From the IMG/VR virus record IMGVR_UViG_3300029922_002860: a stretch of 23,252 nucleotides of DNA. One strand, 5' to 3'. This document shows, piece after piece, positions 1 to 19,998 of this stretch (the stretch's first letter is position 1; the number at the start of each line of letters is the position of its first letter). Below the pieces are notes generated by a model, which was not told where the DNA came from, searched no databases, and saw nothing but the letters and a program-made list of their open reading frames with translations. The DNA comes from a virus (taxonomy: Duplodnaviria; Heunggongvirae; Uroviricota; Caudoviricetes). The translations under genes and the position numbers were made by a program.

Positions 1-4
1 CTGA

Positions 5-172
5 GTTCTGCCGCCCCTCCAAATACGAGGCCAGCTAGAGCCAAGATTCGCGCGGGGATACGGCTCCTGAGTTCTGCCGCCCCTCCAAATACGAGGCCAG
101 CTAGAGGATACGGCTGCGCGTATCCCGAGAGTGCAAGTTCTGCCGCCCCTCCAAATACGAGGCCAGCTAGAG
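5..172 (-). CRISPR. Mini CRISPR array A (3 repeats, 2 complete spacers; probably continues beyond the window start)
   Basis: Identical 36-nt repeats GTTCTGCCGCCCCTCCAAATACGAGGCCAGCTAGAG at 5-40, 71-106 and 137-172, separated by 30-nt spacers. Strand inferred from anti-repeat G-U pairing and from degenerate trailer repeats in the other modules. Confidence 0.93.
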
Positions 173-302
173 GGCACCGTGCAGACTGTTGCTTGCCAAA
201 GAGTAAGAGGGAAGCAGCCCGGTATAAAACTGTCGCCTTGTGGGCGACCCGGGTAGGCTTGGGGTTGGCCCAAGCGTGAAAGGGATGACTCGAAAAGAAC
301 GA
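173..302 (-). ncRNA. tracrRNA/omegaRNA-like scaffold, copy A
   Basis: ~130-nt element repeated four times. Contains an anti-repeat (189-217) complementary to the adjacent repeat, and stems CCCGG/CCGGG, GTCGCC/GGCGAC and GCTTGGG/CCCAAGC that covary between copies. Confidence 0.82.
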
Positions 303-305
303 GAA

Positions 306-335
306 ACACTATCGGCGAAAAGGGACGGGGTTCAA
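306..335 (-). promoter_or_regulatory. Putative sigma70-like promoter of module A
   Basis: Minus strand TTGAAC-N18-TAGTGT. The predicted start falls at about 299-302, where the segment conserved in all four copies begins. Confidence 0.5.
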
Positions 336-340
336 GTCGG

Positions 341-638
341 CAGTTGCTGTCCGGCTTCAATGGAAGGGACCGAAAGGGGCGGTGGAGTTAGCAGACACGT
401 AGGTCGTTCTGCTGCCCCTCCAAATACGAGGTCAGCAAAAGCAACAGATGCAGTTCCTATGACCATGAAGAGTTCTGCTGTCCCTCCAAATACGAGGCCA
501 GCAAAAGGGCAGGATCATGCATCTGCTCGTGGCCTTGTTCTGCTGCCCCTCCAAATACGAGGCCAGCAAAAGCACTGATGCGAAAACCCGTGTGCAACAT
601 CAGTTCTGCTGTCCCACCAAATACGAGGCCAGCAAAAG
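341..638 (-). CRISPR. Mini CRISPR array B (4 good repeats plus 1 heavily degenerate trailer repeat, 4 spacers)
   Basis: Repeats at 406-441, 472-507, 537-572 and 603-638 (consensus GTTCTGCTGYCCCWCCAAATACGAGGCCAGCAAAAG). A degenerate 36-mer at 341-376 has about 19/36 identity. Spacers are 29, 30, 29 and 30 nt. Confidence 0.92.
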
Positions 639-766
639 GGCACCGTGCGGACTGTTGCTTGCCAAAGAGTAAGAGGGAAGCAGCCTGGTATAAAACTGTC
701 ACCTTACGGTGACCCAGGTGGGCTTGGGGTTGGCCCAAGCGTGAAAGGGATGTGTTGAAAGAACGA
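639..766 (-). ncRNA. tracrRNA/omegaRNA-like scaffold, copy B
   Basis: Near-identical to copy A; anti-repeat at 655-683; stems CCTGG/CCAGG and GTCACC/GGTGAC are compensatory variants of those in copy A. Confidence 0.82.
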
Positions 767-769
767 GAA

Positions 770-799
770 ACACTATCGGCGGAAAGGGACGGGATTCAA
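770..799 (-). promoter_or_regulatory. Putative sigma70-like promoter of module B
   Basis: Minus strand TTGAAT-N18-TAGTGT, same position relative to the scaffold as in copy A. Confidence 0.5.
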
Positions 800-810
800 G
801 GCGGCTCTTG

Positions 811-1242
811 TCGTTGCTGCCCCACCAAATGCGAGGCCAGCAAAAGGTAGCCATCGAATTCGGTGAGATGTTTCATGTTCTGCTGTCCATCCAAATACGA
901 GGTCAGCAAAAGGAGTGGCGAGAAGCTTTCTTCATGGTGGTTGTTCTGCCGCCCCTCCAAATACGAGGCCAGCAAAAGGTTGGTGAGCGCACGGGCCAGC
1001 GCGGCATCGTTCTGCTGTCCCACCAAATACGAGGCCAGCAAAAGCGGCACGGCCGGCGAGAAACGATTGTTTAAGTTCTGCTGTCCCACCAAATACGAGG
1101 CCAGCAAAAGAACGGGCAACGGTCCGGGCAATCAGGCTCCGTTCTGCTGTCCCACCAAATACGAGGCCAGCAAAAGCGCCAAGACCGCCTGCCGCAACCG
1201 TGAGCTGTTCTGCTGTCCCACCAAATACGAGGCCAGCAAAAG
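811..1242 (-). CRISPR. Mini CRISPR array C (7 repeats, 6 spacers)
   Basis: Repeats at 811-846 (degenerate trailer), 877-912, 943-978, 1009-1044, 1075-1110, 1141-1176 and 1207-1242. All spacers are 30 nt and unique. Confidence 0.95.
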
Positions 1243-1371
1243 GGCACCGTGCAGACTATTGCTTGCCAAAGAGTAAGAGGGAAGCAGCCTGGTATAAAAC
1301 TGTCACCTTACGGTGACCCAGGTAGGCTCAGGGTTTACCTGAGCGTGAAAGGGATGACTCGAAAAGAACGG
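1243..1371 (-). ncRNA. tracrRNA/omegaRNA-like scaffold, copy C
   Basis: Third copy; anti-repeat at 1259-1287; stem GCTCAGG/CCTGAGC replaces GCTTGGG/CCCAAGC (compensatory). Confidence 0.82.
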
Positions 1372-1373
1372 GA

Positions 1374-1403
1374 TCACTATCGGCGGAAAGGTGCGGGATT
1401 CAA
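1374..1403 (-). promoter_or_regulatory. Putative promoter of module C
   Basis: Minus strand TTGAAT-N18-TAGTGA; weaker -10 than in copies A and B. Confidence 0.4.
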
Positions 1404-1414
1404 GACGGCTCTTG

Positions 1415-1648
1415 TCGTTACCGTGCCTCCAAATACGAGGCCAGCAAAAGGCCCTTCCCCGATTCGATGAACATTATCGGTTCTGCTGCCCATCCAAATA
1501 CGAGGCCAGCAAAAGGGACATTCAGCCACACGAAAGAGGCCCTAGTGTTCTGCTGCCCCTCCAAATACGAGGCCAGCAAAAGGCAGCCCTGTTCAAGTAC
1601 TTTTCGGTTTTAGTTCTGCTGTCCCACCAAATACGAGGCCAGCAAAAG
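1415..1648 (-). CRISPR. Mini CRISPR array D (4 repeats, 3 spacers)
   Basis: Repeats at 1415-1450 (degenerate trailer), 1480-1515, 1547-1582 and 1613-1648. Spacers are 29, 31 and 30 nt. Confidence 0.93.
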
Positions 1649-1778
1649 GGGCGCCGTGCAGAGTGTTGCTTGCCAAAGAGTAAGAGGGAAGCAGCCCGGT
1701 ATAAAACTGTCGCCTTGTGGGCGACCCGGGTGGGCTCAGGGTTTACCTGAGCGTGAAAGGGATGTGTTGAAAGAACGA
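1649..1778 (-). ncRNA. tracrRNA/omegaRNA-like scaffold, copy D (gene-proximal)
   Basis: Fourth copy, starting 9 nt after the stop codon of the 872-aa gene; anti-repeat at 1666-1694; lacks the upstream promoter segment present in A-C. Confidence 0.82.
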
Positions 1779-1787
1779 ATATCTAAA

Positions 1788-4406
1788 CTACGCGCACTGT
1801 TTGCGCACGGAGATGACTGGAAAGGTAACGGTAGTACGCTCGCCGGCACCGGCAAGTGTCTTCTCAGCGAGATCCTTGAACTTGGCGTCGTACCAGCTCA
1901 GCAGGATGGCCCACGCGGCATTGCTTGCGTAACACGAGGACGCATCGAGCCAATTCTCCCCAGAGGCAACCTTCGCCAGGTCCACGATCTTGTTTTTCTT
2001 CCCGCGCGTAACCGCCGTGTGGATCACGGCATCGCTCTCGGCGACAGTTTCGTCGTGGAACGGCACGCCAAAAGGCAGCGACTCCGAGGACCCGTCTCGC
2101 CACCCTCCGTTCAGGAGCGTCGCTGACTTTGCGGAGATCGAATATGCGCTGACCCCGATCTTCGCCAAAGCCGAGGGCAGGTAGCCTTGGGGCGTCAGCC
2201 TGCCGCCTAACTGGGCTAGCGTATAGAAATCCCGGGCCGGATGGCGGACGCTCCCCTTGCCGAAGATCGGGCCACCGCCGCCTATCACAACATGCCCTAC
2301 CCCGTTCGCCGCGCAGATGTCGGCAATCGACCGGGCAATCTTACGATAAAAACGCTTCCCCTCATTGGTGCGGTAAACGCCGAAATCCTTCATTTGCGCC
2401 CGGTTGACTTCCATGGGGATGAACCCCTTTGAAAGCCTCGACCCGCGCCCCTCGAACTCCTGGTCAAGAGAGTCTGCGTTGAAGTGGACGATCATGTCTT
2501 CGCGGCCGATGGTGTTCTTGAGCACGCGGCGGTTCCCGTTTACCGAAACCTGATTGGGATGCAGCGCCTCCTTGTGGGTTTCGCGAACAACGCGCTGGAA
2601 GGCGTAGGGTTCCCATCCGGTGGGTGCTTCACGATCTACGTTAACCTTCCTGAACATGGTCAAGGTCGCGACGCGGAGCCCGCCTGGGGATGCGTGTACG
2701 ACTGCGAGCAACTCTCCGTTCTGGACCGGCCGGAAACGCCCTGGCTTGAGATCCTGCTTGGCTTCCCGAGCCGCCGCTCTTTGAGCATACAGAGCCTTGC
2801 TCGACTCCAACGAGGCTTCCGCAATCTCGGGCATCACGGTAGCGGAGAAGCATCCAAACACCCGCTTTGCATCCCTGTCTTCTATGGTCAGCCTCAGCGC
2901 CTGAGCCTTGAAGAAAAGTTTGCGGCCTTCGGGGTCTCCCGGCATCGGAAGCGTGGCGTCCGGACGGAACTGCGTGGCCCCGTTTTTAACGTCGATTGCC
3001 TGTGGCAGCCGTGTCGCACGGTTTCCGGGTATGTTGCCACGAATGCGTGCCTCTACGAGGGCGGGGACGCTCATTTGCGCCGGTGCCTCGACTGGACGGT
3101 GCGCAGGGATATAGAGCGACACGTAGATGCAGTTGCTTGGTGCTCCCACCTGCGCCGCTTCCGCCAGCTCCCAACCGTACCGGTTATTGGGAAGCAGCGG
3201 GCTGAGTCCGGACGTGTCGGGAACCGACGGTATCGAGACAGGCCGCATAGCGGCGCAAAAGGCTCTTACCGGGCCAGTCACAAAGTCCTTGATGGCCTTC
3301 AGGGGAATATCCTTTTTGTCGGCTGCAATGATCCTGAGCCACCCCGCATGCTCCTCGGTGTCGCCAGGCTCCAACAGGTCGAGCTGCTCAGGGGGGAGGA
3401 GTCCGAATGCCGCCTGATGGAGGGCGAGAATGCGGCTTAGGACACCGCGGTCTCGCGCCAAGTCTTTCGGCTTGCTGCCTGCCGATGACAGGCGACGGAA
3501 GCGGTCGCTGGGGATGAACGGCGTCGGATCAGACTCAGGAAGGAGCGCGACGAATCGGGCAAGGATCGCAGGGTATTCATCCGCGCTTGCAAGGAACTCG
3601 GGCTCCTTCGGGTCAATTGGTTGCCACGCCGTGATGCCGGGACGAAGAAGAACTGCCCGCCACTGGCATGCGGAGATGACCTTTGAGGGAACCTTCTCGT
3701 CCCGAAGTTCCCGGCGCAGAACCGTGAAATAGCGGCTCGCCGAGTCCTGGGCGGCCTGGGTCATGAAGAATCGCTGGAATGGGTTAAAGAACGCGCCATG
3801 CTCCTTCATTAATCCCTGGACCGTGGCGGCGTGCTCCCTTGCCAGCGCACTTGCGCCCTCCTTGTTGGAAAGAAACGATTTGGCCGCGCCGGCAACTTGA
3901 ACGGACATCGTGCTTAGGATCGTCCCCAGATCAATGGCCCCGAATACAGTCTTGAACCACTCTTCAGTGATGGATGGGGGCTTGATGCCGTAGTGGTCAA
4001 GGACCAGCTTGTACGCGGTGCCGCCGCCAGTCTTCCTTGCTTCAGGGAAGACATAGCCACGCAGCATGATGTAGGCGTTCGATGACTTGAGTATGTCGTC
4101 CCACTTGCGACCGGCAATCCCTCCGTCCCCCGATAGGACGACATCCTTCCAGACCTGGGTATCGAGAATCGCCTGGGGAACCACCGAGGGATTCAGGAGG
4201 AGATAGATTGCCAGCCGGTCATCGCCCTCCACCGTGGCCATTGAGCAAAACGTCTCCAGCAGCGCCTTTGCAGTGGCGCTGAAGGTGCGGATGTAGGAGG
4301 TGAGCGTTCCGTATCCGTCTGGGGAAATCGGCGTCACCCGGCCCTTGAAGGCGGTCGAGTAGATGCGCCCGCAGTTGAGTTGGATTGGGGAAAGTTTATC
4401 GTTCAT
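1788..4406 (-). CDS. TnpB/Cas12-like (type V-like) effector, 872 aa, with apparently inactivated RuvC
   Basis: Long ORF abutting the array modules. N-terminal strand-helix (STAFKGRVTP...LTSYIRTF) resembles the WED/REC start of TnpB/Cas12. The C-terminal third has RuvC-like segments in the expected order: LLAVVHASPG (RuvC-I), RKIARSIADICAANGVGHVVIGGG (RuvC-II), ALAKIGVSAYSISAKSAT, and YASNAAWAILL (RuvC-III). Recognised by eye only. Confidence 0.75.
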   Translation of the reverse strand: MNDKLSPIQLNCGRIYSTAFKGRVTPISPDGYGTLTSYIRTFSATAKALLETFCSMATVEGDDRLAIYLLLNPSVVPQAILDTQVWKDVVLSGDGGIAGRKWDDILKSSNAYIMLRGYVFPEARKTGGGTAYKLVLDHYGIKPPSITEEWFKTVFGAIDLGTILSTMSVQVAGAAKSFLSNKEGASALAREHAATVQGLMKEHGAFFNPFQRFFMTQAAQDSASRYFTVLRRELRDEKVPSKVISACQWRAVLLRPGITAWQPIDPKEPEFLASADEYPAILARFVALLPESDPTPFIPSDRFRRLSSAGSKPKDLARDRGVLSRILALHQAAFGLLPPEQLDLLEPGDTEEHAGWLRIIAADKKDIPLKAIKDFVTGPVRAFCAAMRPVSIPSVPDTSGLSPLLPNNRYGWELAEAAQVGAPSNCIYVSLYIPAHRPVEAPAQMSVPALVEARIRGNIPGNRATRLPQAIDVKNGATQFRPDATLPMPGDPEGRKLFFKAQALRLTIEDRDAKRVFGCFSATVMPEIAEASLESSKALYAQRAAAREAKQDLKPGRFRPVQNGELLAVVHASPGGLRVATLTMFRKVNVDREAPTGWEPYAFQRVVRETHKEALHPNQVSVNGNRRVLKNTIGREDMIVHFNADSLDQEFEGRGSRLSKGFIPMEVNRAQMKDFGVYRTNEGKRFYRKIARSIADICAANGVGHVVIGGGGPIFGKGSVRHPARDFYTLAQLGGRLTPQGYLPSALAKIGVSAYSISAKSATLLNGGWRDGSSESLPFGVPFHDETVAESDAVIHTAVTRGKKNKIVDLAKVASGENWLDASSCYASNAAWAILLSWYDAKFKDLAEKTLAGAGERTTVTFPVISVRKQCA

Positions 4407-4432
4407 TGGATAGTTGAAGATGGGGCAAGGAG

Positions 4433-5245
4433 TCAGGCTGCGACAAAGTGTTGGAGTTCGTTCTCGGCCGTGCGCACGCGTTCAAGCTCTTCGCCTGCAA
4501 GGGCGGCCCTGATGCAACGAAGCCCTGCCTGGAGTAATGCCTCACGCGACCGGCCTTTCTCGGGCTTGGCGAGGTGCTCGAATTTGACCGCCGGATCGTT
4601 AGGCCCCCGGCGCTCAAAGTTCACGAGCCGCGTTGTAAATGCGACCGTGCCGGGGCGGTCCTTGCGGAGGCCCATCGTCAGCGCAAACAGCAGCGGGGCG
4701 CGGAGGCCCATTCGACTAAGCGCCCTGTAATGGCTCGCGAGGTAATCGAGTTCCGGTTGAAGCTCCTTTACGGCTACGACAACATCGTCCATCGAGAACC
4801 GCCTCAGTTTCTTCTCCGGGAACTTGACGTAGACCAGGAAGAGTTTTGCGACAGCCGCCCGCATGTCGCCATGCGTAAAACCATCCGCCTCCAAGAGTGA
4901 GCTGTCGCTCACGCGCGAACGCACGTCCACTGCGATCCTGCTTTCCGGGCTGAGGCCAAAGGCCACCTTCATCGTGACCGTGCGTCCGGCCTTTATGATG
5001 GCCATGAGTCGATGTTGCCCGTCAACGAGGACCCCGCGGCTATCGAACGCGACGCCATCCGCCAAGTTTGCCCAACGCCCTGCAAGGATCTCCTCCGTGA
5101 AGAAAGTGATGTCCGTCTCCTTTGTGTCACGGTTCTGCTTGTTCTGCCTTAGCATGGTGAGCGCCAAGTCCGGGCTCACGGCCAACTCAAATTCCACCAG
5201 AATCTTGCTGTGCAGGTTCTCGGTAAAGACTCGGGTGGCGTTCAT
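4433..5245 (-). CDS. ParB-like N-terminal (DGQHR) domain protein, 270 aa
   Basis: VSPDLALTMLRQNKQNR...GRW...GVAFDSRGVLVDGQHRLMAIIKAGRTV pattern typical of phage ParB-like proteins, with an intact GxxR. ATGA overlap with the upstream paralogue. Confidence 0.8.
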   Translation of the reverse strand: MNATRVFTENLHSKILVEFELAVSPDLALTMLRQNKQNRDTKETDITFFTEEILAGRWANLADGVAFDSRGVLVDGQHRLMAIIKAGRTVTMKVAFGLSPESRIAVDVRSRVSDSSLLEADGFTHGDMRAAVAKLFLVYVKFPEKKLRRFSMDDVVVAVKELQPELDYLASHYRALSRMGLRAPLLFALTMGLRKDRPGTVAFTTRLVNFERRGPNDPAVKFEHLAKPEKGRSREALLQAGLRCIRAALAGEELERVRTAENELQHFVAA

Positions 5246-6033
5246 GTGACGGCCTCCACGGTCTGAAGTTCAATACCTGCGCGAGCTAGCAGGTGCAGGC
5301 GGACGCTCTCCGGCTTATCGGAGTCCTCGATGCCGCAATAGGCGGCGACTACAGAAAGAGCGCTTTCAAAGCGCTCGCGGCCGCTCAGCTTGTGATAGTC
5401 CTCCCCCATGCGCCGGCGATAAGCGAGCACCCTTCGACTCGCCTCGGAGCGATCAAACAACTCGGCCAAAAACTGGCGGACCTTCTCTTTGTAACCATGC
5501 CCAACGAGGGCGAGCACGACGGCGGCCTTTGCGGCATTGCTCCAATAGGGGCCGCTGGCAAGCGTTCCTTTGACGGCCGTCACTTCGTCTACAGCCTCGT
5601 GGAAGATCGCGTGTGCGGCCTCCACGTTGAGAGGGTTCGAGGAGTTCTCGCCTTTGACGTAGAGGATAACTGCATTCAGTACCGGAGCCTCCACCCTCGC
5701 CGTATTGACCCTGCACACGGCACGGAGGACATCCTTCGAGTTGCGAGGCCGCCCGCGGCCGTACTTGTTTAGCGTGTCCGGATCTGCATCGCGGGTGACC
5801 TTCACCTCAACGGTGCTTTGTGATTCGCCGATGGCCGCCAAGAGTTCGCCTCCAGAGATGAGGCGCCCGAGCTTGTCGATGACGACTCCCTGGTGGGTCG
5901 GTTGCCAGCGCCCGTTGCGAATCAAATCGCTATAGTTCTTAATCGAACGCCTGTTGAGTCGCAACCCAGCCGGAAGTTTTGAAAGCAGCTGTTCCGCCGC
6001 TAATGGGTCGATGCTTTGTGTCTTAAGAGCCAT
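5242..6033 (-). CDS. ParB-like paralogue with degenerate motif, 263 aa
   Basis: IDPLAAEQLL...LNRRSIKNYSDLIRNGRWQPTHQGVVIDKLGRLISGGELLAAI aligns with the neighbour, but DGQHRL is replaced by SGGELL. Confidence 0.72.
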   Translation of the reverse strand: MALKTQSIDPLAAEQLLSKLPAGLRLNRRSIKNYSDLIRNGRWQPTHQGVVIDKLGRLISGGELLAAIGESQSTVEVKVTRDADPDTLNKYGRGRPRNSKDVLRAVCRVNTARVEAPVLNAVILYVKGENSSNPLNVEAAHAIFHEAVDEVTAVKGTLASGPYWSNAAKAAVVLALVGHGYKEKVRQFLAELFDRSEASRRVLAYRRRMGEDYHKLSGRERFESALSVVAAYCGIEDSDKPESVRLHLLARAGIELQTVEAVT

Positions 6034-6042
6034 AATATAGAA

Positions 6043-6053
6043 TTTGTATGGGA
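6043..6053 (-). promoter_or_regulatory. CCCATAC-type motif upstream of the ParB-ParB-Cas12-like operon (second copy CCCATAAT at about 6098-6106)
   Basis: Minus strand TCCCATACAAAT about 12 nt before ATG 6033; same motif family as upstream of many other genes. Confidence 0.45.
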
Positions 6054-6199
6054 TAATCGCCTAATAGACCGAAAGTTCAATCAAGAGATTGGTAACAGAT
6101 TATGGGTAAGCGGGATGTAGGTGAAGATAAGCGGAGCAATAATGCCTATTTGTAGGTGTTTGATGCAATTCCACGGTCTGCTCAAGCAGCAATCGCTAC

Positions 6200-7159
6200 T
6201 CAGCGGTAGATGGCGTTCAGGATGTCCGCCAGGCGCATTCCTGCCTCGGCGATCTGGCGGGACATGACCGGCGCCTCGCGCTCTGCATAACCCTCCGGCA
6301 GTCGGATCATGATCTTGTGGAGACGGAGCGCGGGATGCCCCTGCCCCCTTGAAACATCCGCGCGTAAAAACTCTATTCCTTCGTAAGCCTGCGTCCCTAA
6401 GACAACGCTCTCAGAAGCCCAGACTGTTGGCCAATGGTGAAAGTCGCCGCCCGTTTCCATGTGAGCGGCCCCGTATTGGCGCATTGCCGTTGCCGCCAGA
6501 GTCCGGTAATCCGTGCCGCTAGAAATCTTCTTCAGCAGGACGGTGTCGAAATACTCGTGCAACTCCTCTGATTTGGTGAAGAAGAGCGCGTTCCCGCCGG
6601 CGTCACCTGGAGAGACTGCCGTAACTTCGCTTGGCGACAGAAGCCGCGGCCTCTCGGGGTCGCTCAGGTCGAAATACCCTGTGATGCAGTGAAGAGGTTG
6701 CGAAATGTCTCCGACACAGTGAATCAAGACACGGGCCGCCTCAGATTGTGAAAGACCAGTTTGGCGCCCGTCGAGAGTTGCTACTGCAAGCGCGATGGCA
6801 TGCGCCACATCGTTCTTGGACGCGTAGAGTTGCGCGTTCGGGTTGTACGAAGTTTCGCCGACAGGGACGTTAACAAAATGCCACTTCGTCGAGCCGGGAA
6901 AGCGGTGGATAAAATCCTTGGCTTCCGCGTCACCTTTCATTTCGCCGCGGTTCTGGCCTGCTGCGCGCACCTCATCGAGCCATGTGGATGCCGATACCAT
7001 GTCGGTTGTCCCCAGGGCCTTTGTGATGCCCGCGCCAGCCTCCGGAGTCAGGTGCTCCTGTGCGATCAACGCGATGGCCCGATGCCCCTCGGCGCCGAAG
7101 CCGAACGCGTTTACGGTCACTGCTAAGGCGAGAAGGATCGAGGTTACGGAATGTCTCAT
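6200..7159 (-). CDS. S1/P1 nuclease family protein with signal peptide (start revised to ATG 7159, 319 aa)
   Basis: MRHSVTSILLALAVTVNAFG signal-like N-terminus, then FGAEGH, STWLDEVR, WHFVN, IHCVGDISQPLH and LHEYFD zinc-ligand motifs of the S1/P1 family. Confidence 0.88.
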   Translation of the reverse strand: MRHSVTSILLALAVTVNAFGFGAEGHRAIALIAQEHLTPEAGAGITKALGTTDMVSASTWLDEVRAAGQNRGEMKGDAEAKDFIHRFPGSTKWHFVNVPVGETSYNPNAQLYASKNDVAHAIALAVATLDGRQTGLSQSEAARVLIHCVGDISQPLHCITGYFDLSDPERPRLLSPSEVTAVSPGDAGGNALFFTKSEELHEYFDTVLLKKISSGTDYRTLAATAMRQYGAAHMETGGDFHHWPTVWASESVVLGTQAYEGIEFLRADVSRGQGHPALRLHKIMIRLPEGYAEREAPVMSRQIAEAGMRLADILNAIYR

Positions 7160-7172
7160 GGGTTGAAGATGG

Positions 7173-8141
7173 TCACGCGAAGGTAAGCTCCCCCTGCCTT
7201 GGTCGCGGTAGGGGCGGCAGAACTTGGGGGGCAGGAGGCGGAATTTCGGGGGCATGGGCTTCGACCTTGGGTCGCACGACCGCATCACGCCCGAAATCCT
7301 CCGCAAACTGGCTCCATATCGAGGCGGCATCGAGGCAGTTGAGTTGCTCCAGTCGTTCGAGGACCTTGGGAAGATCGTTCCCGGCCTGCGGCTTCAACCC
7401 CGCGATGAGGTTCGGGCGAATCAACCTGAAGTTCAGGGCCATCTCAGTCGCCGCTCGCTCACGGGGCCAATTCTTCTTATTGGCCACGAGGTCCACCAGT
7501 TGCTCGTCATCCGGCTCCCCGGAAAGCAAGCTCACGGCTGTCACTGGGCCGATCCCCTCAATGCCAGGAGTGTTGTCGGTCACATCGCCCACCAACGAGA
7601 GGTAGCGGTCCATCTGGGAAGGAGGCACTCCGAAGTCCTCCTTTACCGTTGCTGCATCGCAGCGCTTCCAGCCCCCTGTTATGGGGATGAGCCACGTGAC
7701 GTTGTCCCCTACGACCTGGGAGTAATCCTTGTCGTGGGTCGCGATCAGCACTTCCACCCCAGCCCGACCCTTTGCGACCGTTGCGAGGCTCATTAGCAAA
7801 TCGTCGCACTCCTGCCCTTCCTGGTGGACGTACTCAGCTCCAGAGTCCCTAATGAAGGACTCCACGACCGGGATCTGCTGGGCAAGCTCGGGGGCTTTGG
7901 GCTTCCTGAGCGCCTTGTACTCGGGGTAGAACCCGCGTCGGAAATCGCTCCCTCCGTCGAGGCCGAAGATTACCCGGTTCGGCTCAGTAAAACGAATGAG
8001 GTTCGCGAGCATCGTGGCGCTCTTGGCCACCGCGTTTGTAGGGAAGCCCGAGCATCGCCGGATCGTCATGCCCTTGAGGGCTGTGACGTGATAGGCGCGG
8101 TGGACTAGGTTGCTCCAATCAACTAAGAGTATGCGGTTCAC
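7173..8141 (-). CDS. 5'-3' exonuclease / flap endonuclease (Pol I N-terminal-like); start revised to GTG 8141, 322 aa
   Basis: LLVDWSNLVHRAYH, FGLDGGSDFRRGFYPEYKALR, ECDDLL, THDKDY, LVGDVTDNTPGIEGIGPVTA (H3TH). GTG follows the conserved upstream motif at 8145-8160. Confidence 0.92.
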   Translation of the reverse strand: MNRILLVDWSNLVHRAYHVTALKGMTIRRCSGFPTNAVAKSATMLANLIRFTEPNRVIFGLDGGSDFRRGFYPEYKALRKPKAPELAQQIPVVESFIRDSGAEYVHQEGQECDDLLMSLATVAKGRAGVEVLIATHDKDYSQVVGDNVTWLIPITGGWKRCDAATVKEDFGVPPSQMDRYLSLVGDVTDNTPGIEGIGPVTAVSLLSGEPDDEQLVDLVANKKNWPRERAATEMALNFRLIRPNLIAGLKPQAGNDLPKVLERLEQLNCLDAASIWSQFAEDFGRDAVVRPKVEAHAPEIPPPAPQVLPPLPRPRQGELTFA

Positions 8142-8144
8142 TTC

Positions 8145-8160
8145 CCTATAAGTATGGGGA
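8145..8160 (-). promoter_or_regulatory. CCCCATACTTATAGG promoter-like motif
   Basis: CATACT hexamer 9 nt upstream of GTG 8141. Confidence 0.6.
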
Positions 8161-8178
8161 GTGCTCGCGCTACGATCT

Positions 8179-8952
8179 TCAGAGTGCCCTGCGGGTTTTC
8201 CACCACCGTTGGAAGTCCGACGACACAAGAAGCATGCCGACCGCCAGGGGCAGGCTCAGGAAGGCCCACCCCCACCGAACCCTCCAGTTCGGGAAATTGA
8301 GCATCACGGGTTCGTTCCGCAGGACAAAACGGGTTCCGACAAGCCCCAATTTTTGACAGGCTGCGAACTGCGCGTCGTTCGCATTGCGGAGGTTGGGTCG
8401 CAGAGGGATAATCCTCTCGCCAGGGACATCGTCCGTGGCATTCATCGAGTATGACTTCCCGTCGATTCGGACGGAGGTCCACACGTGCCCCTCACGGTCC
8501 CCGACCTTCGACCAGAGGTGAGCCTTGACGGAGGCATCGAGTCCGAGAGCCCGCAGTAGCGAGAAAAGCACTATGGTCTGGGCTTTGCAGTCGCCCCTCC
8601 AATAGGGCCAACCCTCCAGCGCGGCTTTCTGGCGCAATTCGTCTATCGTGCGAACTTTGCCAGCCGTGAGCCATGTCTGCTCGTCCAATGCATACTGGAC
8701 ATGCACGAGCATTGTTGTGAATGCGAGGGCCGCACGTTGTTTTGGGTCAACGGTAGCATCTGCGATGGCGGCGGCCCATGCGAGAATGTCTGGGTCCTTT
8801 GGGTCGGCTTTAGCCTCGATGAGTTGTGCCGCAAACTCTGTTGTACCTGGCTTTTCCAGGACCTCCATGTTTGGCGGCGGCCCCATCGCAAGGAAAACGA
8901 GGGCAGGCGCGAGAGCTAACCCCGCGTAAAGGAACACAAATGCCCTCCTCAT
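8179..8952 (-). CDS. Membrane-anchored transglutaminase-like protein (start revised to ATG 8952, 257 aa)
   Basis: Hydrophobic N- and C-terminal segments; RGDCKAQT...LLRALG and GHVWTSV match the Cys/His motifs of transglutaminase-like proteins. ATGA overlap with the kinase stop codon. Confidence 0.7.
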   Translation of the reverse strand: MRRAFVFLYAGLALAPALVFLAMGPPPNMEVLEKPGTTEFAAQLIEAKADPKDPDILAWAAAIADATVDPKQRAALAFTTMLVHVQYALDEQTWLTAGKVRTIDELRQKAALEGWPYWRGDCKAQTIVLFSLLRALGLDASVKAHLWSKVGDREGHVWTSVRIDGKSYSMNATDDVPGERIIPLRPNLRNANDAQFAACQKLGLVGTRFVLRNEPVMLNFPNWRVRWGWAFLSLPLAVGMLLVSSDFQRWWKTRRAL

Positions 8953-14197: not shown

Positions 14198-14250
14198 TTC
14201 CAGCCGGTATGGCCCCAGAACCATGCGTTCTGGAGGAAGACCCGGCCGGT

Positions 14251-14268
14251 CCCCCCATAATTTATACC
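14251..14268 (+). promoter_or_regulatory. CCCCCCATAATTTATACC promoter-like motif (divergent partner)
   Basis: CATAAT hexamer 7 nt before ATG 14269 on the plus strand; motif orientation follows gene orientation. Confidence 0.6.
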
Positions 14269-16422
14269 ATGGCAACCAAGGAAATCGCTGATTTTGGTCA
14301 GAAGATCGGTGGCGCTCGAAAAGACCTCCGCGGCAACGTCCGCCTAGAAGACATCCGGGAAATGACCATGGAGGAGATGCTGGAGCTTGTGACGAAGAAT
14401 GTCGTCTGGCCAACGCCCGACTATGAGGAGATGGTCGCGACCCAAGGTTACACGCAGAAGGCGGCCCTCATGGTGAAATCGTTGAGGGACTGTTTCCCAG
14501 CGGCGCCAAAGTGCAGCGCCACTGCAACCGATGCGGACAGGACCCGCGCCTCGGAAATGTACGCCACCCTCGTGAACGCTGCGAAGGCTGTTGCTGCCCG
14601 TGGCAAAACCGAGGCGGAACTCGCGAAGGCGTTCAACGACGCCCCCGAGGCGAAAGAGTGGCTCGCGGACTTCTCGTCGGCACCGAACCCCTCGACCTAC
14701 CGTGGCTACGGCCGCGACAACTATGTCCCCGCCAAGCGCTACAACGAGGCAATCGAGGCCGCGTTTGGGAGGTCGTGCCTCAGCGATAGTCATTTCATGA
14801 TCGGCAGCTTCCGGACGTTCGCAGCGGGAAGCCTCGATTCCACCTCGAACCGGATTCTTAAGAAGAACCCGCAGTGGCCAGCCGGCACCTCACAGGCCGA
14901 AGCCTTTTTGCGCAGGTCGCAGATCGGGGTGATTCCTATTGGAACCGACGGCTTCCGTATCGGAAGGAGCGGCACGCTACCGGTTCCGCACACCTACTCC
15001 CACCATGAGTTGAGCCGCGTGGGCTTTGATGACGCCACCCTGGCGAAGCTCTTCAAGACCAAGGAAGAGGCCGATGCGGCAATGCTTGTGGTGGCCGAGG
15101 CCCACTACGCAACCAAGCGCTCCGGGGCCAAAGCCAAGCGCGAGGCCCTGCTCCAGAGGGCTAAAGGCGCAGTCGTTGTCGGCGACGGCCTGGTGGACAG
15201 GGTCGGTAAGAATTGGCGTGACGGGGCCGATGTCGAGGGGGAGGATTACCTTCGCGTATTCGGACTTCGCGGGGGCGAGTTCGGCCTCTGGGTCAATCAA
15301 GAGGAGCGCCAGATGGTCCTCAACAAGGGCTTCGACTCGTTCCACGACCTGGCGGACGTGATGGCCTTGGAGCCTTCGCACACCTCGCTCGGAGGCACCC
15401 TCTCGATTGCGTTCGGAGCGCGCGGGAATGGAGGCTGGGCCGCCGCCCATTACGAGCCGGGACGCCGCGTTTTCAACCTCACCAAGCCCTCGGGAGAGGG
15501 ATGTTTCTGCCACGAATGGTTCCATGCGTTGGACCATCACCTCGGTCGTCGGGCAACCGACCTGGGCCTCGTCGAGCGAATCCGCGACCCCGAGCACGCG
15601 CCCTACCTGACGAATGTCACCCTCAAGAAGAAGTCGCCGGAAGCTGTGGAGTCGCCGGAGGCTACCTACTTGCGCGAGGTGCATGACGCAGTGGACTCCA
15701 TTCCGGTCTCGAACGATCCGAAGACCAAGGCGGTCCTGCTGACTGAGGCAAAGAAGCGGTACGAGGAAAACGTGCGCTGGCTGATGATTCAAGTCGCCGC
15801 GGCGGAGAACTTCCTGGACCGGACCACGTGGATTCCCCAAGACAAGCGCGCCGAGCTGTCCGGGCTGATCTCCCGCATGCGCAGCCCAGACCCCGAGCGG
15901 AAGCAGGAAGATTTCCACAGCGCCGTAGGATCTTTGGTCGTAGCCCCCGAGTTGGTCCGGTTCCCGAACAGGCACGTGCTCTCGTACTACCAGACCGAGA
16001 TGCTAAAGGCCGCAGTCAGCGTGCGGGACTCGGAGCAACTGCCCGACGGTTGGACAGGGGAGGCTGTTAAGCGCAAGACCAACTATGCATCAGCGGTCGC
16101 GAAACTCGATAAGCAGCGGTCGTCCCCCTACTACTCGAAGCAACACGAGATGTTCGCGCGCGTAGGCGAGGCTGTCATTGCCGACGAACTCGTCGCTCGC
16201 GGACGCGCAAACTACTTTCTTGTCGCGGGAGCTTCCGGGGAAGCCTACCCGCAGGCGGAAGAGCGTGATGGTTTCCGGACGAAATTCATGCCGCTCCTAA
16301 AGGGCCTCGCCGGACATCTTCCGAAGGTTGTTTCCGAAGTGGGCCGGCGCGAGTGCCCTCCCCTCCCCCAGCCCCGTGCAGCAGCTGTTGCCTTTCAGGG
16401 CGAACAGATGACCCTTATCTAA
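14269..16422 (+). CDS. Large polyvalent protein-associated (LPD1-type) zincin metallopeptidase-like protein (start revised to 14269, 717 aa)
   Basis: DFGQKIGGARKD N-terminus; GGEFGLWVNQEER...LSIAFGARG...AAAHYEP...NLTK...CHEWFHALDH (HExxH); YYSKQHEMFARVGEA, typical of LPD1-containing proteins of phages and conjugative elements; ends in QMTLI. Confidence 0.82.
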   Translation: MATKEIADFGQKIGGARKDLRGNVRLEDIREMTMEEMLELVTKNVVWPTPDYEEMVATQGYTQKAALMVKSLRDCFPAAPKCSATATDADRTRASEMYATLVNAAKAVAARGKTEAELAKAFNDAPEAKEWLADFSSAPNPSTYRGYGRDNYVPAKRYNEAIEAAFGRSCLSDSHFMIGSFRTFAAGSLDSTSNRILKKNPQWPAGTSQAEAFLRRSQIGVIPIGTDGFRIGRSGTLPVPHTYSHHELSRVGFDDATLAKLFKTKEEADAAMLVVAEAHYATKRSGAKAKREALLQRAKGAVVVGDGLVDRVGKNWRDGADVEGEDYLRVFGLRGGEFGLWVNQEERQMVLNKGFDSFHDLADVMALEPSHTSLGGTLSIAFGARGNGGWAAAHYEPGRRVFNLTKPSGEGCFCHEWFHALDHHLGRRATDLGLVERIRDPEHAPYLTNVTLKKKSPEAVESPEATYLREVHDAVDSIPVSNDPKTKAVLLTEAKKRYEENVRWLMIQVAAAENFLDRTTWIPQDKRAELSGLISRMRSPDPERKQEDFHSAVGSLVVAPELVRFPNRHVLSYYQTEMLKAAVSVRDSEQLPDGWTGEAVKRKTNYASAVAKLDKQRSSPYYSKQHEMFARVGEAVIADELVARGRANYFLVAGASGEAYPQAEERDGFRTKFMPLLKGLAGHLPKVVSEVGRRECPPLPQPRAAAVAFQGEQMTLI

Positions 16423-16759: not shown

Positions 16760-17437
16760 GTGTGCGCTTACCCATCCCCTGTTCAGGATACCACGGTAGC
16801 GATTGGCCCACGTCGCTCGGCCTCAACCAAGAAACTTGGATTTCGCCCGACCTTCAGTCCGGCTGAAATTACGGCACAACAGGGTAGCCCTGGGGGAATA
16901 GATCCAGTCTATTTCGCAGCTGCTGCGGCTCGCGGCCATCTCCATCGGTTCTCAATGGAGGCGCTCGAATCGCTGGATTTTCAGGCCCAAAGGTATGTGA
17001 TGCAAATCACCCTGTTGCACACGGCGGCGTTCTTCAGCCGGCTAGACCAAATTCCTGCGTCAAAGCTGACGGAGGAGTCTCTATGCATTGCGAACAAGAA
17101 CGGGTTCACCCCGTTGCATTTTGCCGCGATGAAGGGGTGCCTCTACCAAATCCCTCCAGAACTCATTACGGAGAGGGCACTGTTGCAAGCAACCCTAAGA
17201 GGCCACTCGGTAATCGACTACGCCGAAGCGTATGGCCACCGCGACCAGTTGCCGCCCGAAACCATGCCACTGCCCGCTAAGTCAATTCTCCGCGCGGTCA
17301 AGAAGAAGCCGGAACCTTTATCCCGTAGTACCGCGACCTTCGATTTCTTTGGAGAGCATACTCCGGCAACCCGAGCCATTTTGCGCCCGCTACCGACCCC
17401 TAAACCCGCTCCTGTTCAAGGAGCTTCGATCCGCTGA
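16760..17437 (+). CDS. Ankyrin-repeat-like protein (start uncertain)
   Basis: TLLHTAA, NKNGFTPLHFAAMKG and GHSVIDYAEAYGH ankyrin-like units. Confidence 0.7.
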   Translation: MCAYPSPVQDTTVAIGPRRSASTKKLGFRPTFSPAEITAQQGSPGGIDPVYFAAAAARGHLHRFSMEALESLDFQAQRYVMQITLLHTAAFFSRLDQIPASKLTEESLCIANKNGFTPLHFAAMKGCLYQIPPELITERALLQATLRGHSVIDYAEAYGHRDQLPPETMPLPAKSILRAVKKKPEPLSRSTATFDFFGEHTPATRAILRPLPTPKPAPVQGASIR

Positions 17438-18906: not shown

Positions 18907-19998
18907 TTAGGATGAATCCACGAGGAAGTTGCGTTCCCGCGAACGGTCTCCGTGTCGCGCATCTCGGAGGCCGGCGAACTCCTTGGCGACAAATTTCCCG
19001 ACGCAAACGGGGAATTCCGCCAGCGCAAACTTGGCAGCTATCCGAGCGACGAACCCCTCCAGCGGGTTTCCGTCCAACTCCCGTCGGTAGATTCCCCGTG
19101 CAAGCTTCTCATCCCACAGTCCCCGATAAAGCACAGGGACAACCGTGAGGCCAAGCAGGCTGCACCATTCCAGGGTCTCGTCCCAGCTCAGGCACTCGTT
19201 CCGATCATTCCAGACCGAGTGAGCGAAGAAATAGGTCGGCAGGCGGTACTTGATGGTGTGCGTCTCGAACATGTTCTCGCCGCAAACCCTCCACCCTTTG
19301 GGGATCTGCCAACCCCACGATGCATGGAAGTTCCGGACCCAGTTCTGAGCGTCGCTGTGTCGGCCGTCTACCGCGCGCGCATGAAGGTAATCCGTGTAAC
19401 AGGTGGTCTGCTCCCCATCGAGCTTCGCCGAGAGGACGATCTGCGCACCACGAAACCGGTCGATATTCGGCATGAATTCATCGTCCTCGGTCGCTCCTTC
19501 GGACCAAGGGAGGTGAGAGGTGCGCGGGTGCTTGACCCAGTCAGTAAATCCCAGGAGGGCGTCGCCGGCGCGGAGCACGGCCTGGACGGATTCGTCCATG
19601 AAGAGCGGCCCCTTTGCTCGCTGGCCGTTGCTTAGGTAAGGGTTCCCCCACTTGTCGTACCGTTGGTCGCTGTAGAGATCCATTGGCAGGGCGATCTCCT
19701 CGATCCCCGCCTTTTCCCGGATCTCCTCGCAGCTGATTAGGGTCGCCTCCGCCTTCAGGTGGCACGACTCCATTGACCCGTTGTCGCACAGTGTCGCGCC
19801 GTTCGAGAGGAAGTAGCCGCCCACTTCCTCTGGGTGGATGAATAGGCGGCGCTCGACGATGTGGTGAGCGTCCAAGCGCCATCCTTCGCCTTCCTTGCGC
19901 CCACAGATCACGCAACAACCGTCGCGCTTAAGCACGCCAGCACGAAACGAGTCCCTGTCGAGCAGGCGCCGGGCGATTGGTTTTCGTGAGGCAGGCAT
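18907..19998 (-). CDS. HNH domain-RNA ligase fusion, 363 aa
   Basis: N-terminal CCVICG...LDAHHI...SNGATLC...CH (HNH-like, Zn-binding); C-terminal KHPRTSHLPWS, KLDGE (nucleotidyltransferase motif I), GENM, EGFV and KFV. Confidence 0.85.
   Translation of the reverse strand: MPASRKPIARRLLDRDSFRAGVLKRDGCCVICGRKEGEGWRLDAHHIVERRLFIHPEEVGGYFLSNGATLCDNGSMESCHLKAEATLISCEEIREKAGIEEIALPMDLYSDQRYDKWGNPYLSNGQRAKGPLFMDESVQAVLRAGDALLGFTDWVKHPRTSHLPWSEGATEDDEFMPNIDRFRGAQIVLSAKLDGEQTTCYTDYLHARAVDGRHSDAQNWVRNFHASWGWQIPKGWRVCGENMFETHTIKYRLPTYFFAHSVWNDRNECLSWDETLEWCSLLGLTVVPVLYRGLWDEKLARGIYRRELDGNPLEGFVARIAAKFALAEFPVCVGKFVAKEFAGLRDARHGDRSRERNFLVDSS

Follow-up and report, generated by a model that had tools for sequence, protein, structure and literature searches.

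A conserved pair of ParB/Srx-fold proteins, one intact and one degenerate, encoded with a rare Cas12-like effector of putatively inactive RuvC

The locus and the question

What do two ParB-like proteins, one with intact and one with degenerate motifs, do beside an RNA-guided protein that appears unable to cut? The question is raised by positions 4433-6033 of the Caudoviricetes record IMGVR_UViG_3300029922_002860, where two genes, here called A and B, lie directly upstream of a gene for a Cas12-like effector. The window is the whole analysed stretch, 23,252 nucleotides (nt) in length. The gene pair is a real, conserved accessory module of a rare Cas12-like CRISPR system whose effector seems dead; the module is apparently undescribed, no published description having been found. 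A and B are probably helper subunits for RNA-guided binding without cutting.

A, B and an open reading frame (ORF) of 872 amino acids (aa) are three co-directional ORFs of the minus strand. Gene A (5242..6033, minus strand) is the first in the operon; its ORF and translation give a degenerate ParB/Srx-like paralogue of 263 aa (Srx, sulfiredoxin). Gene B (4433..5245, minus strand) encodes a ParB/Srx-fold protein of 270 aa with intact motifs. The stop codon of A and the start codon of B overlap in ATGA (5242..5245, minus strand; ...GTC ACA TGA / ATG AAC...), an arrangement of translational coupling. B is separated by a spacer of 26 nt (4407..4432, minus strand), containing CCCCATCTT at 4417-4425, from the Cas12-like effector gene (1788..4406, minus strand; 872 aa), in which no RuvC catalytic residues are recognisable. 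A preliminary description of the locus had reported two paralogues with an ATGA overlap, DGQHR in one and SGGEL in the other at the same site, and a gap of 26 nt before the effector; each of these features was found where it had been placed, and the gene pair is not a chance pattern.

Conservation of the gene order

Every recovered locus with sequence 5' of an effector homologue was inspected. The effector is rare, with six relatives only in 5.8 billion clusters and about five lineages known. The order A-B-effector is kept in four of the five lineages. A and B overlap by 4 nt in the window lineage (B-effector gap 26 nt), in the L001 lineage (loci L001, L002 and L004; gap 7 nt) and in the L003 lineage (L003, L007, L008 and L013; gap 40 nt), and by 26 nt in the L005 lineage (L005 and L017, Opitutaceae metagenome-assembled genome; gap 23 nt). 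Identity between lineages is 38-51% for A, 44-53% for B and 37-48% for the effector; divergences of such similar size fit joint inheritance. The surrounding genes vary by lineage: the window has an S1/P1 nuclease and an exonuclease, L002 a CRISPR array and PcfJ, L007 an IS607-like pair and L005 AAA_5/DUF2201. All B relatives of more than 44% identity, and every A relative found, sit in effector loci. With a word-based search, A-type proteins were found solely in the window's own cluster and in the L001 lineage. In L001 and L002 an array of four repeats lies 5' of A, so that A and B are placed between array and effector, inside the CRISPR locus. The preliminary description had considered that effector homologues might generally lack these neighbours; in four of five lineages, among unrelated flanks, they have them. 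The fifth lineage (P0006/L014) is without A and B.

A separate promoter for the effector, earlier suggested from CCCCATCTT in the spacer, finds no support. The motif (4417-4425, minus strand) occurs at chance frequency, with 9 matches at no more than one mismatch where 6.0 ± 2.4 are expected, a count that 17 of 100 shuffles attain. The spacer sequence is unconserved, save for a partial CCCCATCTT match in L007, and in L001 the gap of 7 nt between B and the effector leaves no room for a separate promoter.

Description of gene B

The AlphaFold2 (AF2) model of B, built on 27 relatives, has a mean predicted local distance difference test score (pLDDT) of 91.8. In a Foldseek search against the Protein Data Bank (PDB), the top rows are all of the ParB type (pNOB8 ParB-N, ParB-CDP, Noc, KorB, PadC, sulfiredoxin), at E values of at least 0.03. 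In an all-against-all fold alignment with 48,161 chains, the best seven rows are all ParB/Srx folds (Z 4.5-6.3, residues 15-111 of B), among them PadC (Z 6.3; root-mean-square deviation, rmsd, 3.1; 90 residues aligned), Srx (6.1), pNOB8 ParB-N (6.0), KorB (5.5), SerK (5.1) and Atu1540 (4.5). Re-alignment on M. xanthus ParB with CDP or CTPgS gives Z 6.5-6.8 at an rmsd of 2.8 Å over 86 residues; across ParB-CDP/CTPgS, PadC, KorB and Noc the values are Z 5.2-6.8, about 3 Å and 85-90 residues. On the model, the assignment of residues ~15-111 to the ParB/Srx fold is secure because the match list is uniform and a GxxR-type motif lies on the expected helix. The ParB-like N-terminal domain first proposed for B is thus borne out by three concordant fold searches, as one of the ParB/Srx fold.

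The motifs are intact. NKQNR (residues 35-39; 5129..5143, minus strand) is the NxxNR motif of the family. DGQHR (residues 75-79; 5009..5023, minus strand) is the GxxR-type nucleotide-binding motif; it lies on the helix after strand 3 and is present in B and lost in A. D107 (4925..4927, minus strand) is an invariant acid after the strand that follows the GxxR helix. R39, G76, Q77, R79 and D107 are invariant in the 27 relatives; across canonical modules, N35, N38 and R39 are kept in 83-100% and D107 in 100%. The order of the invariant residues parallels that of the three ParB nucleotide-binding boxes, and by this order NxxNR may be the equivalent of ParB box I. Superposition of B 19-111 on M. 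xanthus ParB 37-128 puts D75-R79 at about ParB 93-97, which we take to be the E-GERR motif, and DGQHR would be its equivalent. B would presumably bind a nucleoside triphosphate (NTP); specificity within the ParB-CTPase fold is as yet unpredictable from sequence or from AlphaFold3 (PMC12704722).

The C-terminal domain (residues ~112-270) is helical and has no clear fold match. Alignment of B with KorB, Spo0J and C. crescentus ParB extends over 145-172 residues, but at an rmsd of 4.6-6.0 and Z 3.7-6.0. Residues 112-168 (window ~4742-4912) give repeated weak matches to sigma domain 2 and RuvA domain III (Z 2.4-3.4), a resemblance that is probably that of a generic three-helix bundle. Among predicted viral structures (BFVD), phage proteins match B along its whole length (E 2e-12); the more distant matches there are GmrSD-N, ParB/Srx and DndB-like proteins.

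Description of gene A

SGGEL of A (residues 60-64; 5842..5856, minus strand) stands at the position of the GxxR motif. When four A and four B orthologues are aligned with MAFFT, it shares its columns with DGQHR of B. At this site every A orthologue reads ISG(G/A/M)(E/D)(L/I)L. All four are without equivalents of R39, D75, Q77, H78, R79 and D107; the glycine alone is retained. The A orthologues have gained a common loop, RWxPTHQG, which reads RWQPTHQG in the window (residues 42-49; 5887..5910, minus strand) and is kept in all of them. The contrast of one intact and one degenerate copy, first seen in the window, is thus true of all orthologues and, on the alignment, is a constant feature of the pair rather than an oddity of the window.

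Direct BLASTP of A against B gives nothing (E 32). The two are considered paralogues because both match phrog_5931 (A, 1.3e-16, residues 4-199; B, 4.2e-36, residues 22-261), because orthologues link them (L005 A against window B, 2.9e-8) and because A aligns to the family profile.

Predicted pairing of A and B

A and B are predicted to form a heterodimer through their N-terminal domains. With alignments supplied for both chains, the predicted complex has an ipSAE of 0.73 (three runs, 0.72-0.79), against 0.46 for the best control. The ipSAE mark is reached by 58 of 80 solved complexes and by 2 of 110 mismatched pairs, a calibration that is rough here as custom alignments were used; the value may also be partly inflated by likeness to solved dimers of ParB N-domains. 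The runs share at least 95% of contacts, with a partner pLDDT of at least 87. The predicted interface is almost wholly N-domain to N-domain, with no C-terminal contact. Loop 42-49 of A is predicted to lie against B 62-66, 74-75 and 93-108, round the nucleotide motifs; the contacts of lowest predicted error are those of A 45-47 with B 62-66, 74-75, 93-98 and 102-106. ParB dimers engage by N-domains that sandwich nucleotide; the predicted A-B pair is similar but has one competent site.

Description of the effector and of the CRISPR region

No match of the effector to Pfam, to Cas12 profiles or to PDB sequences is observed. Its profile against PDB sequences, and hhalign against the TnpB of L007, likewise give nothing, and no relative is present in IMG/VR. 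A baeRF_family10 match (E 0.006, under the cut-off) was dismissed. The AF2 model has a mean pLDDT of 57.5 and is good in the N-terminal helical lobe only, the C-terminal half lying below 50. Nearly all Foldseek matches of this model are Cas12 proteins: Cas12X2 (E 7.6e-6, probability 0.98), then Cas12i2, g, b, m2, h1, k, f and CasX, with many further matches at E 1e-3 to 1e-1; template modelling (TM) scores are only 0.1-0.2. In the ESM Atlas the effector is nearest to Cas12a/b by features (0.91) and to TnpB/Cas12f by structure (TM 0.53-0.58, hit-normalised).

In the alignment of the five lineages the contexts VHxxPGGLRVAT, GHVVxGG and xxNAAWAIL are without a conserved D/E/D. The RuvC-like positions read (S/C/T/A)-P-G-G, G-G, and A/S/V/P before x-NAA. 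These positions are the authors' own reading, backed solely by the order of secondary structure in the effector model. The earlier account of the protein as Cas12-like, without recognisable RuvC acids and beside CRISPR arrays is upheld, with the fold search as the source of the first term; "dead RNA-guided effector" is a reasonable, provisional reading. In L004 (754-2865; P0008) the effector occurs as a variant that lacks ~180 internal residues of the helical lobe when compared with its near-identical L001 relative.

The CRISPR region (1..1787, minus strand) lies directly 3' of the effector and runs off the window. It holds 18 repeats of 36 nt and 14 unique spacers, 29-31 nt long, which are divided among at least four mini-arrays with 3-7 repeats apiece (1648-1415, 1242-811, 638-406 and 172-5, minus strand, the last running off the window). 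Ahead of each mini-array stands a conserved unit of ~170-230 nt; it contains two hairpins, of which one is followed by a T-run, and ends in a degenerate repeat. It could be a duplicated leader with a promoter or a tracrRNA-like gene. A layout like that of the window, with six copies of unit plus mini-array 3' of the effector, is present in L013 (8700-11100) and L007 (13500-15853). These two contigs, from different samples and data sources (JGI and ENA), carry identical spacers in identical order. No cas1 or cas2 is observed in the scanned ORFs of the window or in related loci. The arrays are considered static and not acquiring, because the spacers are identical across samples and cas1/cas2 are absent from these ORFs and loci.

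Family membership

In Pfam, NCBIfam and PADLOC no significant match is observed for A, B or the effector. Neither A nor B matches a Pfam family at E ≤ 0.1, ParBc/ParB_N (PF02195) included. Against the DndB/DGQHR profile TIGR03187, B reaches 15.2 bits (E 0.014) across 22 residues round the motif, the cut-off being 58.85, and no dnd genes lie nearby. DUF262/GmrSD-N is not matched in Pfam or PADLOC; the folds of BrxU and SspE align at Z 2.5-4.1, and no HNH is present in A or B. The sole profile hint of ParB is phrog_1033, "ParB-like partition protein" (E 0.018). In the ESM Atlas the neighbour clusters of A and B are mostly viral, and 13-14% of their members carry ParB_N. Spurious matches were set aside: the PDB sequence search with B gave designed "Pizza" propellers only, with no passing stretch, and the profile of the 27 B relatives against PDB sequences (E ≤ 10) gave RIF1 at E 0.04 and no ParB. 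The preliminary description had called the pair ParB-like and likened it to ParB/KorB-type domains; the fold survives and membership of those families does not, as no ParB or KorB profile matches and the motif is DGQHR, not GERR. Because the ParB/KorB, DndB and DUF262 profile tests failed, A and B are filed under an unnamed family of the ParB/Srx fold.

The family (proteins P0036-P0182 among others) is large and has no Pfam model. A profile search of 1.84 billion representatives (50% identity clusters) gives 32,889 proteins at E ≤ 1e-3 and 18,915 at E ≤ 1e-30. Among the best 150 representatives, 103 are proteins of ~560-620 aa with two full modules. DGQHR is restricted to the C-terminal module in 24 of 25 fusions inspected. 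Across 100 fusions, the C-terminal module keeps NxxNR, DGQHR and D107, and the N-terminal module keeps DGxxR and loses Q, H and NxxNR; A of the window is more degenerate than these N-terminal modules. The order degenerate-then-canonical matches that of A then B, and A and B therefore resemble a common protein of two modules in split form.

Plasmids of Streptomyces, Bifidobacterium and Acetobacteraceae carry members, one of which the annotation pipeline calls "ParB/RepB/Spo0J family partition protein". Many phages carry them too, some under the name "ParB-like nuclease domain protein" and some under that of "HTH DNA binding protein" (HTH, helix-turn-helix). No characterised member of the family was found. 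The gene contexts of fused members on Acetobacteraceae plasmids are uninformative. A few members are fused to RepB or GAF-histidine-kinase domains.

Proposed function

A, B and the effector are proposed to be one operon of a rare CRISPR system, with A and B as dedicated accessory subunits that the non-cutting effector loads; this proposal is tentative and is held at slightly less than even confidence. The Cas12-like effector would bind its targets through CRISPR RNA (crRNA) and leave them uncleaved. A and B would form an NTP-gated heterodimer through their ParB/Srx-fold N-domains, with one live site. B would supply the sole competent NTP site (NxxNR, DGQHR and D107), and A would be a pseudo-enzyme partner whose RWxPTHQG loop rests against the region of the nucleotide site of B. 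The target-bound effector-crRNA would recruit the heterodimer or load it onto DNA. There A-B may hold, spread on or occlude the flanking DNA, and so stabilise, extend or lock occupancy. In this way binding would lead to the lasting silencing or exclusion of a host locus or of a competing mobile element.

Several points weigh against this proposal. Gene arrangement and its conservation, fold, motif asymmetry and fused relatives are direct results and the heterodimer is a prediction, but contact of A or B with the effector, the dead RuvC, the nucleotide and the action on DNA are inferred. The Z-scores of B (no higher than 6.8) are modest and fall in the range that the tool rates as common. A and B match no ParB, KorB, DndB or DUF262 profile significantly, and neither an HTH nor a C-terminal dimerisation element was identified in them; no parS site was identified either, though no search aimed at one was made. 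The call of a dead RuvC leans on the reading of motifs and on a C-terminal model of low confidence. ParA, AAA_31 and CbiA are absent from the scanned ORFs of the window (short ORFs partly scanned) and from the gene tables of related loci. No spacer target was found: no self-target and no target in related loci is observed, and phage and plasmid collections gave one match at chance level (E 0.01). The family is present in phages and plasmids without Cas12 and so has a Cas-independent function; the P0006/L014 lineage lacks A and B, so the effector can exist without them.

A more specific form of the proposal, close to that of the preliminary description, is doubtful: a crRNA-guided dead Cas12 would replace parS as a programmable site of loading or locking, and the NTP-gated heterodimer would spread or clamp nearby. 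The closed sliding clamp expected at first is not borne out, since the predicted interface is essentially one of N-domains; with no C-terminal contact in it, ring closure is unsupported.

Alternative explanations

It is unlikely that A-B is the missing nuclease, so that the NTP-activated ParB/Srx domain of B, placed by the dead Cas12, nicks or cuts the target in the manner of Cas3 or DinG. The conserved operon and the asymmetry of the pair would fit such a role equally. Osa of pSa, of the ParB/Srx fold, reportedly has DNase and ATPase activity. Phage relatives of B bear the annotation "ParB-like nuclease domain protein", and DGQHR/DGQQR modules partner nucleases in GmrSD, BrxU and SspE, which are weak fold matches of B. 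The cutting in GmrSD, BrxU and SspE is, however, done by a separate fused HNH/DUF1524 domain, and A and B have none. The helical C-terminal domain of B matches no nuclease; the "nuclease" annotations are labels and not the outcome of tests, and no PADLOC defence model matches.

Quite unlikely is a role of A-B in controlling transcription, either of the locus itself or of genes of a phage or plasmid, with no joint action with the effector on targets; the model would be DndB, a DGQHR protein and regulator of the dnd operon. The TIGR03187 match (E 0.014) to the DGQHR domain is weak and, at 15 bits, lies far under the cut-off of 58.85. One neighbour cluster in the Atlas bears the name "DGQHR domain-containing protein", and phage relatives are annotated "HTH DNA binding protein". 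Relatives stand alone in early or replication modules of phages and on plasmids without Cas genes, and A and B come first behind the AT-rich region 5' of the operon. A regulator would, on the other hand, have no need of translational coupling and matched divergence across four lineages with different flanks, and the degenerate A-type partner is found solely in effector loci.

It is very unlikely that A-B couples the dead effector to RNA polymerase, to activate or to repress, by analogy with dCas12f-sigma-E. The analogy is drawn from the fifth lineage. In L014, and also on the P0006 contig, a sigma-70-family gene of 231 aa (L014:1573-2268; Sigma70_r3 2.2e-6 and r4_2 5.9e-6, above Pfam cut-offs) lies ~310 nt 5' of the effector, in the same upstream position as A and B. 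The P0006/L014 effector is 44.6% identical to that of the window and is no more distant than the effectors linked to A and B. Further upstream an uncharacterised protein is encoded, which has 793 aa on the P0006 contig and is truncated to 509 aa in L014. The upstream proteins of L014 were tried as A/B-like and rejected (hhalign probability <1%, no sequence similarity). The L014 sigma gene recalls dCas12f-sigma-E and suggests that partner modules are swapped within the effector family. RNA-guided transcription by dCas12f-sigma-E is published (PMC13472631), and residues 112-168 of B are weakly like sigma domain 2 (Z 2.4-3.1), a likeness within chance for a three-helix bundle. Against such a coupling, A and B have no sequence similarity to the L014 sigma or to its neighbour protein; the sigma gene of L005 is 3 kb away and unrelated to that of L014; and 14 unique spacers in several arrays fit interference better than regulation of a few promoters.

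Incidental linkage, in which ordinary phage or plasmid ParB-like genes came by chance to lie 5' of the effector, was raised in the preliminary description and is likewise very unlikely. In its favour, the family is very large (32,889 representatives) and typical of mobile elements, the window has phage-like genes and one effector lineage lacks the pair. Against it, four lineages whose proteins are 37-53% identical and whose flanks are unrelated share gene order, strand and close spacing, and A and B still overlap; the L001/L002 array lies on the far side of A and B, and the closest relatives of A and B are found solely with the effector.

Relation to known systems

The nearest precedents of the proposed accessory module are TIGR-TasA/tasParB and dCas12f/sigma-E. 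TIGR-TasA/tasParB (Faure et al., Science 2025, PMC12045711) is a nuclease-free RNA-guided DNA binder with a ParB-like partner in a conserved operon and an adjoining guide array; it too is carried mostly by phages and parasitic elements. TasA is a Tas protein with a Nop domain and TIGR arrays, whereas here a Cas12-like protein is combined with CRISPR repeats. The tasParB partner is a single gene with a predicted C-terminal homodimer; here an intact and a degenerate gene form a pair, and pairing by N-domains is predicted. The likeness of tasParB to A and B is one of description.

ParB, Noc and KorB share the fold of the N-domain of B, with the GxxR arginine and the flanking motifs in equal order. 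Their N-domains dimerise round the nucleotide; here the pair is hetero, with one dead site. The ParB clamps have GERR and a ParBc/ParB_N profile, whereas B has DGQHR and neither A nor B matches that profile. The KorB clamp silences genes at a distance once its partner KorA locks it (PMC11790492).

DndB and the DUF262 proteins of GmrSD, BrxU and SspE share DGQHR with B (DGQQR in the L003/L007 orthologue) and have a ParB/Srx fold followed by a helical region. DGQHR/DGQQR modules are typical of defence systems and mobile elements. The DndB and DUF262 systems differ from the present one: the scores of A and B are under threshold, no HNH/DUF1524 is fused, and no dnd or ssp genes are present.

RuvC-inactive Cas12 proteins beside arrays are likewise known in V-M (Cas12m), V-C, V-K (Cas12k) and dCas12f-sigma-E. 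V-K acts through TnsC/TniQ and dCas12f through sigma-E (PMC12669027, PMC13472631); interference by binding only is reported for the inactivated Cas12 of V-C and V-M (PMC12669027). In these type V systems the partner is not a ParB-like pair, and the effector described here matches no Cas12 profile or solved structure by sequence. It may yet equal a listed rare variant such as subtype V-O, V-P or V-Q. The word "ParB" is absent from the main text of the 2025 CRISPR classification. In the 2025 survey of ParB-CTPases there is no Cas12, tandem, DGQHR or heterodimer, and "CRISPR" appears in a cited title only (PMC12704722).

The phrog_5931 (unnamed) family has a full-length fold in common with A and B (Atlas TM 0.74-0.82). 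Its fusions have the same order of modules; here, by contrast, the modules are separate genes, the first is without DGxxR, and both are tied to a Cas12-like gene.

Neighbouring genes

The AT-rich intergenic region 5' of A (6034..6199, minus strand) is the likely promoter region of the operon. It has a GC content of 0.41, against ~0.60 in its surroundings, and is the only sizeable non-coding gap 5' of A-B-effector. The promoter is called putative because no sigma-70 consensus was found in a scan of 1600-6400; terminator-like sites in that span are at chance level. No Rfam family is matched in the window.

An ORF of the S1/P1 nuclease family (6200-7330) and one of a 5'-3' exonuclease/FEN (7173-8228) adjoin the operon on its 5' side, in the same orientation. 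The two listed ORFs overlap by 158 nt and the Pfam match of the former starts at residue 78, so the start of the S1/P1 gene is probably further downstream. Neither neighbour is kept in the other lineages. Further genes of the window are a polyvalent-protein fragment with LPD1 (14209-16422), an ankyrin-repeat protein (16760-17437), an RNA ligase with an HNH-like N-terminus (18907-19998; phrog_24030, 4e-103) and a class II-like ribonucleotide reductase that runs off the window end (21413-23251; phrog_367, 2e-96). The gene content of the window suggests a large phage, plasmid or other mobile element.

The IS607-like pair of the L003 lineage consists of a serine resolvase and a TnpB of 548 aa with a Cas12f1-like_TNB domain. 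It lies just 5' of A on the opposite strand, at L007:6526-8780 and L003:771-3025, and also occurs in L013. A TnpB of active type thus adjoins the dead Cas12-like operon in L003, L007 and L013.

Significance

Dead RNA-guided proteins gain function through partners, by transposase machinery in Cas12k and by a sigma factor in dCas12f. If the proposal is true, a ParB-like NTP switch would be a further solution of this kind and would join the fields of ParB clamps and of CRISPR-derived binders. If the guided effector does replace parS, this would be a third mode of coupling beside RNA-guided transposition and transcription, the sigma lineage being a natural module swap; chosen DNA molecules could then be silenced over long distances, or tethered and segregated, under RNA guidance. 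The system is small and self-contained (263 + 270 + 872 aa plus a 36-nt repeat) and, if RNA-guided spreading or silencing is true, could be used as a programmable long-range repressor. For the unnamed ParB-like family of ~33,000 clusters, including its two-module form with a degenerate half, it would give a first functional context.

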